A stretch of DNA of 64,000 bases from an uncultured bacterium. Lineage in GTDB: Bacteria; Babelota; Babeliae; Babelales; RVW-14. A model generated the notes under the pieces. That model searched no databases. It was not told where the DNA came from and saw only the letters and a program-made list of their open reading frames with translations. Both the position numbers and the translations under genes were made by a program. The first letter of the stretch is position 1, and the number at the start of each line of letters is the position of its first letter. Where the stretch lies: NCBI GenBank assembly GCA_963759805.1, contig CAVXAT010000001.1:128001-192000 (forward strand). Reading direction: 5' to 3'. Below are positions 19,833 through 21,091 of the stretch, in pieces.

Positions 19833-20995
19833 GTTTTGTTCCCTTTAAATTGTCGCACAGCCTGTGCGACTTTTTTCAATTTTACTTTGTTTGACTTGGC
19901 CCCGGTCAAAATATCTTTTTTCTCAAGCTCAGCTTCAATTTCCTCTATTGATGGCAAACTGCTCCTCAAATTCTTTGGGAGACTTTTGGTAATTTTCGTT
20001 TCATATCCGGCTATGCCTATCGGCTTATTGATATCTCGCAAAGAGTATTCGGCAACAACATTGTTTTTCGTTTTGCACAAAAGTAATCCTATCGTTGGTT
20101 TGTCATCCGGTGCGCGCAATAGATCATCAACTGCAGACAGATAAAAATTCAGTTGGCCTGTGTATTCTGGTTTGAAGGCTGTACTTTTGAGTTCTACAAC
20201 CAGATAACATCGAAGTTGTAGATGGTAGAAAAGCAGATCAATGTAAAAATCGGTTTCACCGACTTCAATGTGTTTTTGGCGTCCAACAAAAGCAAAGCCT
20301 TGTCCGAGTTCAAGAAGAAATTGTTGAACGTGATCTATCAGCGCTTGTTCCAATTCATGTTCAACGTAATCATTACGTAGGGTAAGAAAATCGAAAAGAT
20401 ACGGATCTTTCAACGATTGCTTGGCCATGTCAGAGTGGGGAGCTGGCAATGTTTTTGAAAAATTTGTAACTGCCTTGCCCTGTCGTCGGTAAAGTGCTGA
20501 CTCAATTTGCATCTCAAGAATTGTGCGGCTCCATCCGTGCTCAACGGCTTTTTGAGCGTACCAAAGGCGTTCTTCGTTGTTCTTTAACTTTTGCATTATG
20601 ATGACATTGTGAAACCAAGGAATATTAAAAATTGGCATGTCTTCAATTTGTCGCGCAGCCTGCGCGACTTTTTCATAAGCCCCATAGAAAGCCTGCATTC
20701 TGAAAATATTAGCCCGCGAAAAACCTCCCAGTCCAGGGAATGAGTTTTGAAGATCCTTGGCCAGTTGGTCTATTACCCCTGAACCCCAGCCGTTGGTTTC
20801 TTGTTTTTCAACAATGGTCTTTCCAAATTGCCAGTAAAGTTTGATCAATTCCTTGTTTGCAGACAACGTTGCCTTGATTTGTGCTTGCTGAACCTGTTCT
20901 TTTAGATATAACAATGTTTGAGCATACTCTTTGGTTGAAATATTGGTAGAAGAGTGTTTTGCTGAATGCTTTTTAGTTATTTTTTTCTTAATCAT
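19829..20995 (-). CDS. yhcG: YhcG/DUF1016 PD-(D/E)XK nuclease-domain protein
   Basis: N.ELIKLYW..G, GFS..N...M..FY, PW.HN, KDPY.FDFL, FLLELG.GFAFVGRQ, IDLLFYH, VVELK, GQLNFY. Confidence 0.93.
   Translation of the reverse strand: MIKKKITKKHSAKHSSTNISTKEYAQTLLYLKEQVQQAQIKATLSANKELIKLYWQFGKTIVEKQETNGWGSGVIDQLAKDLQNSFPGLGGFSRANIFRMQAFYGAYEKVAQAARQIEDMPIFNIPWFHNVIIMQKLKNNEERLWYAQKAVEHGWSRTILEMQIESALYRRQGKAVTNFSKTLPAPHSDMAKQSLKDPYLFDFLTLRNDYVEHELEQALIDHVQQFLLELGQGFAFVGRQKHIEVGETDFYIDLLFYHLQLRCYLVVELKSTAFKPEYTGQLNFYLSAVDDLLRAPDDKPTIGLLLCKTKNNVVAEYSLRDINKPIGIAGYETKITKSLPKNLRSSLPSIEEIEAELEKKDILTGAKSNKVKLKKVAQAVRQFKGNKT
19852..19870. repeat. yhcG-associated palindrome (3'-end copy)
   Basis: gtcgcacag-c-ctgtgcgac, encodes KVAQAVRQ. 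Confidence 0.85.
20648..20680. repeat. yhcG-associated palindrome (internal copy)
   Basis: ttgtcgcgcagcctgcgcgactttttcataagc, encodes AYEKVAQAARQ; 32/33 identical to 21007..21039. Confidence 0.9.
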
Positions 20996-21006
20996 ATTTG
21001 AACCTC

Positions 21007-21039
21007 TTGTCGCGCAGCTTGCGCGACTTTTTCATAAGC
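21007..21039. repeat. yhcG-associated palindrome (proximal upstream copy abutting the RBS)
   Basis: ttgtcgcgcagcttgcgcgactttttcataagc. Confidence 0.9.
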
Positions 21040-21058
21040 TAGATAAAATGCTCTTTAC

Positions 21059-21091
21059 TTAAATTGTCCAGCAGCCTGCTGGACAATTTAA
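21059..21091. repeat. yhcG-associated palindrome (distal upstream copy, 16-bp arms)
   Basis: ttaaattgtccagcag-c-ctgctggacaatttaa. Confidence 0.88.

Follow-up and report, generated by a model that had tools for sequence, protein, structure and literature searches.

A perfect palindrome of variable sequence inside yhcG genes and its copies at the gene borders in an uncultured Babelales bacterium

The closest described systems with short palindromic DNA in or around a gene are of different kinds. In REPtrons, the gene of a RAYT transposase of the HUH/Y1 type is accompanied by REPs that are abundant genome-wide, and template switching at quasi-palindromes is a known mutational process. ParB–parS, Noc–NBS and KorB–OB combine a helix-turn-helix (HTH) protein with palindromic sites that lie within the protein’s gene or next to it, such as the parS inside B. 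subtilis spo0J. Another parS is reported inside the parA coding region of M. bovis BCG (PMC2346475). The present analysis deals with a palindrome of the yhcG genes, seen in a 64,000-nt stretch of the genome of an uncultured Babelales bacterium (contig CAVXAT010000001.1 of assembly GCA_963759805.1; hereafter the window, meaning the whole stretch analysed), where it stands inside the coding sequence and is repeated in pieces of the same DNA around the gene. YhcG (DUF1016, COG4804) is among the most widespread uncharacterised nuclease families, occurring in E. coli K-12, at type I restriction loci and on mobile elements. The palindrome is real, statistically solid and family-wide; its function is inferred. 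The searched literature on YhcG/DUF1016, consisting of main texts with most subscription journals and supplements outside, holds no description of it, and the available parts of PMC9881135, PMC4316617, PMC13734603, 10.64898/2026.09.08.750204, PMC1189080 and PMC7967276 make no mention of a palindrome; the last of these reports, in the part available, that the 5′ region of yhcG is covered by an antisense RNA in E. coli.

Around one of the two yhcG genes of the window (yhcG1), the first-pass annotation had described four copies of a GT-N4-CAGCYTG-N4′-AC palindrome, and all four were found exactly at 19852, 20650, 21009 and 21066, with N4 and N4′ complementary in 4/4 copies (Table 1). The identity of the gene as YhcG, with a DUF1016 N-domain and a PD-(D/E)XK domain, was confirmed by Pfam matches; the location of the palindrome shortly ahead of PW.HN and the copying of a 33-bp coding segment into non-coding DNA by the ribosome-binding site (RBS) were confirmed as well. 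The internal copy (I), which on the coding strand reads AYEKVAQAARQIE, is located at the end of an HTH-like helix and the start of a variable linker ahead of PW.HN. The outer copies A, B and C are hereafter called satellites. The 33-bp segments of B (21007-21039) and I (20648-20680) are identical in 32/33 positions, their homology going about 12 nt further 5′ at an identity of 7/12 (RAFYLAYEK versus QAFYGAYEK), and the palindrome of B is followed after 3 nt by the GAGG RBS of yhcG1. Satellite A, which reads IVQQAAGQF, has its start at the stop codon of an APH(6)-like gene; C is separated from the yhcG1 stop codon by 20 nt. With at most one mismatch, the motif pattern had 13 matches on both strands against 1.26 expected, a number reached in 0/100 shuffles. 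The second paralogue, yhcG2, has an internal palindrome of its own and two satellites, A2 and B2. The original palindrome of B2 (39099-39117) is degenerate, an 8-bp hairpin being formed in a shifted register, and the palindrome of A2 lies 12 nt past the stop codon of the upstream HTH_3 gene.

Table 1. Positions of the two yhcG genes, their internal palindromes and their satellites in the window
Feature	Position	Strand	Description
yhcG1 coding sequence	19829..20995	-	388 aa; DUF1016_N head and predicted PD-(D/E)XK nuclease domain
Unit I (internal)	20648..20680	-	palindrome 20650-20668 GTCGCGCAGCCTGCGCGAC; codes V110-Q116 (VAQAARQ)
Satellite B	21007..21051	-	yhcG linker DNA piece RAFYLAYEKVAQAARQ; palindrome 21009-21027 GTCGCGCAGCTTGCGCGAC
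Satellite A	21059..21091		perfect 33-nt palindrome with 16-nt arms; includes motif copy 21066-21084 GTCCAGCAGCCTGCTGGAC
Satellite C	19847..19875	-	palindrome 19852-19870 GTCGCACAGCCTGTGCGAC in the yhcG1 C-terminal tail (KKVAQAVRQFKGNKT, then stop)
yhcG2 (second paralogue)	37922..39067	-	381 aa; 53% identical to yhcG1
yhcG2 internal palindrome	38708..38729		TTGTGCAGCAGCCGCTGCACAA; 9-nt arms, 4-nt centre; directly before IPWGHN
Satellite B2	39077..39129	-	17 yhcG linker codons (ACEKVSQAVTQLESLPI, then stop); ends 8 nt before the yhcG2 start
Satellite A2	39137..39166	-	perfect palindrome 39140-39158 (KVQQAVGQI)

The palindrome is a feature of the gene family. The homologue sample comprised 80 yhcG loci (the best 80 among 532 confirmed relatives, which represent many phyla and for the most part metagenome-assembled genomes, MAGs) plus 30 yhcG loci from relatives of this genome; since the sampled genomes are related and were picked as best matches, the counts are descriptive of this sample and do not amount to independent trials. 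Nearly all sampled loci have a perfect palindrome at the same codon position with arms that differ between loci, for instance TTGTCCAACAG/CTGTTGGACAA, TTGTGCAAGAG/CTCTTGCACAA, TTGTGCCACAG/CTGTGGCACAA and TTCTGCCACAG/CTGTGGCAGAA. The codons ahead of PW.HN, for which a check of this kind had been suggested, are palindromic at a fixed position with variable arms across many yhcG genes, and the opposite possibility, a lack of palindrome conservation at synonymous positions, is contradicted by the homologues, which keep the palindrome at such positions. In statistics that undercount the arms, because genes with a spacer hold the palindrome further upstream of PW.HN, the best perfect arm within the 72 nt before PW.HN was on average 9.0 nt long (68 loci), compared with 4.6 nt in synonymous-codon shuffles (300 per gene) and 4.3 nt in other windows of the same genes; arms of at least 8 nt were present in 48/68 loci, and for 27/68 loci the observed arm was reached by none of the 300 shuffles. 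With mismatches allowed, 73 of the 79 distinct stems contained at least 8 Watson-Crick pairs, a few of the 79 not being the linker palindrome. The density of perfect palindromes with arms of at least 9 nt (79 loci) was 3.58/kb in the linker, 0.06/kb in the rest of the gene and 0.09/kb in the distal flanks.

At the third codon positions of 33 distinct spacer-less genes, conservation reached 82–97% inside the palindrome and 33–58% just outside, a clear bacterial case of a DNA-level constraint shaping a coding sequence across phyla, which matters for codon-based selection models. The conserved codons inside the palindrome are CAA, CTT, GCA and CAA, in GC-rich organisms too. Moreover, the palindrome is the best-conserved 12-codon DNA window of yhcG1 in comparison with two homologues (94% and 89%), the gene-wide DNA identity of which to yhcG1 is 67.5% and 60.8%. 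It may be up to 39 nt long, is perfect through the centre and varies in sequence between orthologues; the yhcG of E. coli K-12 has an internal palindrome with 15-nt arms. The arm classes follow the yhcG gene phylogeny, and paralogues within a single genome all have different arms. Upstream of a planctomycete yhcG (L026 440-572, also L027), four successive co-varying palindromes with a CAGTG/CACTG centre were observed, and the L026 gene itself has three in-frame linker palindromes. Such in-frame palindrome arrays, as well as small ‘pseudo-fragments’ beside genes, are at risk of being misread in annotation.

The symmetry of the linker palindrome is at the level of DNA, given arms far beyond those of synonymous shuffles and almost no G·T pairs. 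RNA helices are normally rich in G·U pairs. In the 935 stem positions of the 79 distinct stems, 39 were mismatched, with 3 G·T, 11 A·C and 12 A·A on the sense strand; the near absence of G·T indicates that the constraint is the Watson-Crick symmetry of DNA, and mRNA structure was rejected as the main constraint on this ground. The predicted hairpins are strong on both strands, the upstream region having z values of -4.8 and -6.4. On the + strand, copies I, B and C consist of a stem followed by TTTTT and so look like intrinsic terminators, a form that is antisense to all neighbouring genes, for which reason an intrinsic terminator was not accepted. This look is a by-product of the E/K-K codons that precede valine in this AT-rich lineage, and it is absent in GC-rich relatives. 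A scan of positions 19000-22000 against Rfam 15, with E values up to 10, gave 5 matches (E 0.44–5.8), all far below the gathering scores.

In the whole assembly (1.5 Mb in 21 contigs, 37.5% G+C, 88.7% complete), which has only two yhcG genes, the exact motif occurs only at the two yhcG loci, with six copies in all, and a backwards-read control pattern had 0 matches. Among sequencing runs, two DNA runs kept as contigs contained 0.07 and 0.04 of the sampled words, and no RNA run was listed. The alternative that the motif is equally common away from yhcG was thus not borne out, and a REP-like genome-wide repeat was ruled out by the same confinement. In a scan of 35 family genomes, the placeable palindromic matches were at yhcG genes or were solo copies in a same-genus genome (G002, see below).

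Each outer copy is a piece of 35–60 bp of yhcG linker DNA with some flanking codons. Satellite A shares its 23-nt core without any difference with the palindrome in the linker of L019, a yhcG from a planctomycete, and it carries the isoleucine codon typical of spacer-less yhcG genes. Satellite C resembles the linkers of the L004 type (VAQAVRQFE), B2 those of L006 and L099 (VSQAVTQLES.P) and A2 those of L085 and L063. Because of these resemblances in sequence, other yhcG lineages appear to be the source of A, C, A2 and B2, which would suit an occupation of the same place by earlier alleles.

The layout with copies bracketing the gene recurs elsewhere. At a locus of an Acidobacteriota MAG (L072), the arms are TTCTGCCAC in all copies, of which two are upstream, one is internal and one belongs to the C-terminal tail; the first upstream copy follows directly after the stop of the upstream gene. 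In E. coli K-12, the copies are placed 16 nt past the gltD stop, inside yhcG and 16 nt past the yhcG stop. The Babeliaceae loci L002 and L084, perhaps one record, have two upstream copies between which a copy of the N-domain segment, 130 nt long and decayed, is located, and in L002 one upstream copy agrees with the internal copy at 27/27 positions amid diverged neighbouring sequence. A copy just ahead of the start codon was present in L002/L084, L088 and G018:C71, and one just past the stop in L098 and L066. Overall, 11 palindromes with arms of at least 9 nt, some of them ordinary terminators, were counted in 43 kb of proximal flank versus 25 in 271 kb of distal flank (79 loci).

Two earlier suggestions concerned the origin of these copies. 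Donor cassettes rewriting a variable peptide were not supported, as B shares the N4 of the gene and no N4 switching was seen. The idea of a hairpin micro-element propagated by the YhcG nuclease held in one part, in that the copies are short linker pieces and that solo copies without the gene exist in a sister species; its spreading did not hold, the copies being few, all within about 1 kb of yhcG or its former place, and several of them apparently coming from other lineages. The outer copies look more like rearrangement scars than like a propagating element. A diversity-generating retroelement, considered as B and I differ by one A/G, was dismissed with a repeat of only 33 bp, and the ORFs scanned included no reverse transcriptase.

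Several rearrangements of yhcG loci end at or next to the copies. The same-genus genome G003 has no block 19840-21978 (yhcG, B, A and the APH gene), its HAD gene being joined to a cyclase gene; the left break (19839/19840) lies 12 nt beyond C, and a short repeat of about 7 nt is present at the junction. Another genome of the genus, G002, keeps APH, and homology to it ends at window position 21104, 13 nt inside the APH end and just outside A; the C-terminal residues of APH differ as well (LEVLRAY before the stop, versus LEVLESIQ in G002). No yhcG was detected in G002 at E ≤1e-20 (93%-complete assembly), and two solo linker pieces flank a nitroreductase gene there, one of them matching the internal yhcG1 copy at every position over 29 nt and the other starting at the nitroreductase stop codon. 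In G020, of the same family, yhcG is broken directly after the palindrome, and the second fragment begins at the palindrome position. An inverted match of 11 nt (GTGGCTTGACG / CGTCAAGCCAC) is present in the interrupting sequences of the two G020 pieces, L137 (G020:C64) and L138 (G020:C97); these sequences may represent both ends of an insertion by which one gene was split across two contigs. Mosaic pairs of genes were found as well: L001/L002 are 65% identical before the palindrome and 88% after it, and L021/L022 91% before and 76% after, both with the switch at the palindrome, whereas in a third pair (L103/L006) the switch is near residue 200 instead.

The same was observed among E. coli strains. 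The K-12 locus was matched by 5415/5426 complete genomes, with a coverage of at least 80% in 3445. Among 40 records spread over the ranking, the match started 11–22 nt after the downstream copy in 7 and inside the internal copy in 1. Strain M45, which lacks yhcG, has gltD, a single solo palindrome and then nanQ; the left flank of this palindrome is that of the K-12 gltD copy, and its right flank resembles that of the K-12 downstream copy. In strain EC21Z-063, an IS1-linked deletion ends 7 nt inside the internal palindrome. Strain 7_29_23A shows the E. coli linker to consist of three tandem units, and the two satellites resemble units 1 and 2. The copies mark break sites of yhcG loci, which helps in tracing how genes were gained and lost in the small genomes of endosymbionts. 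In some E. coli strains, yhcG is split into two annotated pieces by insertions of the IS2/IS3 family.

Two candidate empty sites were not accepted. A simple empty site for yhcG1 was not given by G003, where the join of HAD to cyclase has no palindrome and lacks APH too, so that the interval from A to C is not established as the piece that is gained or lost. In the case of yhcG2, the rearrangement of the region in G002 and G003 is too extensive for such a site.

Both YhcG proteins match the Pfam family PF17761 (DUF1016_N) past the curated cut-off, with E values of 2.2e-41 (yhcG1) and 3.1e-40 (yhcG2), and yhcG1 matches PF06250 (YhcG_C) at 3.3e-68. They also match the PADLOC candidate defence family PDC-S02 (E 4e-149 for yhcG1 and 7.5e-145 for yhcG2); to judge by titles and the opening lines of abstracts, the literature listed for PDC-S02 appears to consist of surveys or association studies. 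The predicted nuclease residues E229, D253 and K270 are invariant in 53 sequences, with E268-L-K270 read from the sequence; an E-D-E(I/L/V)K motif of the YhcG C-terminal domain is given in the available part of PMC1189080. The fold of the C-terminal domain matched NucS (2vld_B, Z 9.9) as well as the HsdR nuclease domain, BpuSI and Hjc, in agreement with the assignment of YhcG to YraN/Hjc-like nucleases in 2005, as contained in the same part of that source (PMC1189080). In the alignment, the linker has 7 to about 60 residues in 1–4 tandem units and lies between the GFS.RN..MR.F helix and PW.HN.

The model of the N-domain (pLDDT 92.5, pTM 0.81) has V110-A113 closing helix 94–113 and A114-Q116 opening the loop, and a single long helix makes up what precedes the HTH-like part. 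Its comparison with 48,161 chains in VIA-align 2 placed ParB–parS at the top (6s6h_B, Z 6.8, 98 aligned), the next rows being Spo0J (1vz0, Z 6.0), KorB (8qa8, 6.0; 1r71, 5.9) and SopB (5.0), with VirB and P1 ParB further down the list. The best Foldseek TM-scores were those of Noc–NBS (6y93_A; TMt 0.69, prob 0.85), ParB (6sdk_A) and Noc (7ol9), and with both the whole model and the N-domain model Foldseek returned nothing at E ≤0.001. A sequence search against solved structures had no match at E up to 1. Helical domains readily give middling Z values. Two aligners nevertheless point to one protein family, the binders of palindromic sites, to whose DNA-binding domains in ParB, Noc and KorB the modelled N-domain is weakly but consistently closest. 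Self-recognition or operator sites, one of the options in the first-pass annotation, are compatible with this model comparison and indirectly supported by it. As for a ParB/Srx CTPase domain, the Pfam matches contain no ParB-type family, only DUF1016_N and YhcG_C.

Compared with the systems mentioned at the beginning, the yhcG palindromes are similar to those of ParB–parS, Noc–NBS and KorB–OB in being clustered at the protein’s own locus. Unlike ParB, YhcG has no N-terminal CTPase domain among its Pfam matches and has a nuclease as the partner domain; unlike the ParB, Noc and KorB sites, the YhcG palindrome, the binding of which is putative, is perfect through its centre, long and variable between orthologues. 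REP/RAYT is similar in that copies of a short palindromic element stand on both sides of a nuclease gene to which they are related. However, RAYT belongs to HUH/Y1 and YhcG to PD-(D/E)XK, the master copy of YhcG is inside the coding sequence, and REPs number tens to hundreds per genome as opposed to six YhcG copies, all at yhcG loci. The mitochondrial inverted repeats of one animal group are, according to the available part of their description, perfect, located in functional protein genes and coding in both arms, like those of YhcG; according to the same part, they are many and in many genes, while the YhcG palindrome is at one position in one family of bacteria and archaea, with satellites outside the gene. 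Integrons with their attC sites and cassettes have in common structured variable inverted repeats at gene borders, a one-orientation array of unrelated small genes and breaks of gene presence or absence near the repeats. In contrast, the YhcG repeats are perfect, without the imperfect arms, extrahelical bases or GTTRRRY core of the attC type, and they occur only at yhcG borders and at one nitroreductase gene in G002. An integron array, suggested by the one-orientation run of small unrelated genes, was rejected, as there were no attC features and no integrase among the 35 ORFs scanned.

The explanation tentatively preferred here is that the palindrome may be a cis-acting self-site of the ParB-like YhcG head and a recombination hotspot, the satellites being scars or copies and some of them maybe extra sites. 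The N-terminal head, similar to those of ParB, Noc and KorB, would recognise the palindrome in the linker of its own gene, and, as a perfect inverted repeat with a tendency to form hairpins, the palindrome would be a hotspot at which breakage, template switching and recombination occur. There, yhcG alleles would be duplicated, replaced or deleted, with linker pieces left or copied at the gene borders; satellite B would come from the present gene, and A, C, A2 and B2 from alleles resembling other yhcG lineages. Bracketing yhcG, the satellites would act as end points of the gene’s loss or exchange, and some might be additional binding sites, namely B at the RBS and A ending the upstream gene. 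That YhcG binds or cuts the palindrome, or that the palindrome has a role in regulation, is putative, and the conserved site built into the gene is a first concrete guess at the DNA that YhcG might recognise, testable in E. coli K-12. Several observations weigh against this explanation. The centre has anything from 0 to 5 nt in different orthologues and shifts by 1 nt within L072, a variation that a rigid dimer on duplex DNA would not easily accommodate, and the similarity to ParB is weak (Z <8, Foldseek E >1). Given palindromy, the conservation of synonymous sites follows from the protein constraint on the paired arm and is therefore, taken by itself, no proof of DNA selection. Satellites A and C differ in N4 from the gene’s own copy, and satellites in general are a minority, some of the proximal palindromes being terminators, and so cannot be essential. 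The G003 junction has no solo copy, and the missing block takes in APH too. In E. coli, yhcG is at essentially one locus (median 1 place per genome, maximum 2) with no sign of transposition. A stronger version, a self-recognising pair in which the ParB-like head would read the site, DNA coding for the stretch directly behind the head’s own recognition helix, and the junction-type nuclease would cut the extruded hairpin or cruciform, making the gene its own recombination hotspot, is considered unlikely. If true, such a self-cutting pair would drive allele replacement, swapping of N- and C-terminal modules and local seeding of satellites, whatever lies between two copies could be excised or inserted by it, and YhcG would be a self-homing gene or mobile cassette of a new, nuclease-based kind, with a range that reaches from E. 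coli to Dependentiae-like endosymbionts.

The main rival to a self-site is a functionless quasi-palindrome, an ancestral inverted repeat kept perfect in a permissive linker by intrastrand template switching, with fragility alone producing the tandem units, the nearby copies and the end points; this is somewhat less probable than the self-site. Such mutagenesis would explain the perfect arms, their co-variation and the local copying without selection, and template-switch rates at quasi-palindromes exceed those of base substitution. The Watson-Crick pairing is indeed perfect with almost no wobble, the linker accepts any length and many sequences, and the palindromes are still perfect in the frameshifted or stop-containing L094 and L096 and in non-coding satellites. 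The new hairpin of B2 in a shifted register and the sporadic occurrence of satellites fit this explanation as well, and the frame offset pairs synonymous sites with the constrained sites of the other arm, explaining the conservation of third positions. Yet the linker accepts deletions too, and 73/79 stems keep at least 8 Watson-Crick pairs. The palindrome window is the best-conserved DNA of the gene between homologues of different phyla, and the bracket layout, which such a mutational process, not being an element, does not predict, is repeated in three phyla. Neither does it predict a ParB-like head, so that the presence of a palindrome in a gene whose head resembles the palindrome-binding ParB, Noc and KorB would be a coincidence.

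The other explanations are less probable than either of these. A nuclease-driven cassette, in which YhcG would cut the bracketing palindromes as hairpins or cruciforms and excise or insert the segment at solo sites, is a stronger form of the micro-element suggested earlier and is judged quite unlikely. It would account for the copies that bracket the gene here, in L072 and in E. coli, for the ‘empty’ solo site in E. coli M45, for the solo copies of G002 that flank another gene and for the similarity of the nuclease domain to NucS and Hjc-type junction nucleases; moreover, an excising 4-kb genomic island named ‘4.DUF1016’ appears in the available part of a preprint (10.64898/2026.09.08.750204). 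The content of the brackets is inconstant, however, including gltF-yhcADEF in K-12 and APH in the G000 versus G003 indel, E. coli 7_29_23A has yhcG without the copy on the gltD side, and yhcG is at one locus in nearly all E. coli. The flank length of satellites varies, so that no fixed element end exists, and most loci have no satellites. Hairpins acting in RNA, as terminators, protectors of mRNA 3′ ends or a translational control of a toxic nuclease, are slightly less probable still. Although strong hairpins are predicted on both strands, copies are found directly past the stop codons of upstream genes, B is at the RBS and the + strand of I, B and C is terminator-like, the 3 G·T in 935 stem positions are unlike RNA helices, the terminator form is an antisense codon by-product missing in GC-rich relatives, no Rfam family was matched in the region scanned, and a long perfect in-gene helix conserved across phyla has no obvious role in RNA. 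Least probable, to the point of being hardly credible, are silent donor cassettes that rewrite the linker peptide or its site by gene conversion. Satellites with another N4 do adjoin the genes (A and C; A2 and B2), the 27/27 identical upstream copy of L002 amid its diverged surroundings hints at short-tract conversion, and the paralogues of one genome all differ in their arms; against this, switching was not seen in any case, B has nothing to donate because it does not differ from I in N4, and satellites are missing from most loci.

Some further features of the window were observed. The HAD hydrolase gene begins with a GTG that overlaps the stop codon of yhcG1 (GTGA; 19829-19832). In G003 (L122 2690-2700), this gene begins with an ATG overlapping the stop codon of the cyclase gene (ATGA), and it is thus translationally coupled to whichever gene precedes it. 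Just upstream of a gene for a DUF4143 AAA-ATPase (17737..18909), a 31-nt palindrome, GACAAGTTTAAACTC.GAGTTTAAACTTGTC, is located at 18922-18952; it is 93–97% conserved in G002, G003 and G007, where the surrounding DNA is 76–92% identical, and may be an operator. The HicA/HicB pair (22704-23412) is missing at this place in G002 and G003, which represents another small indel within this run of genes of one orientation. A 128-aa ORF (26779..27165) has a weak match to the IS200-like Y1 transposase family (PF01797, E 1e-6), and the motif scan of the window found no palindromes of the yhcG type adjoining it.

A block of about 15.7 kb (about 24000-39750) is missing in G002 and G003, in which the NUDIX gene is about 1 kb from the TLC fragment at the place where the block is absent. 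It contains a MacB/HlyD/OEP efflux set, a Fic protein, a cyclin-domain protein and a TLC transporter, together with toxin-antitoxin genes of the HEPN/MNT and YafQ types and yhcG2 with its HTH neighbour. The genes for the cyclin-domain protein and for ATP/ADP translocases (TLC) are at 32463-33236, 33258-34565 and 39754-40371, one TLC gene being a C-terminal fragment only. The TLC and cyclin-domain genes point to an intracellular lifestyle, and the closest yhcG relatives include one from a Babeliaceae MAG.

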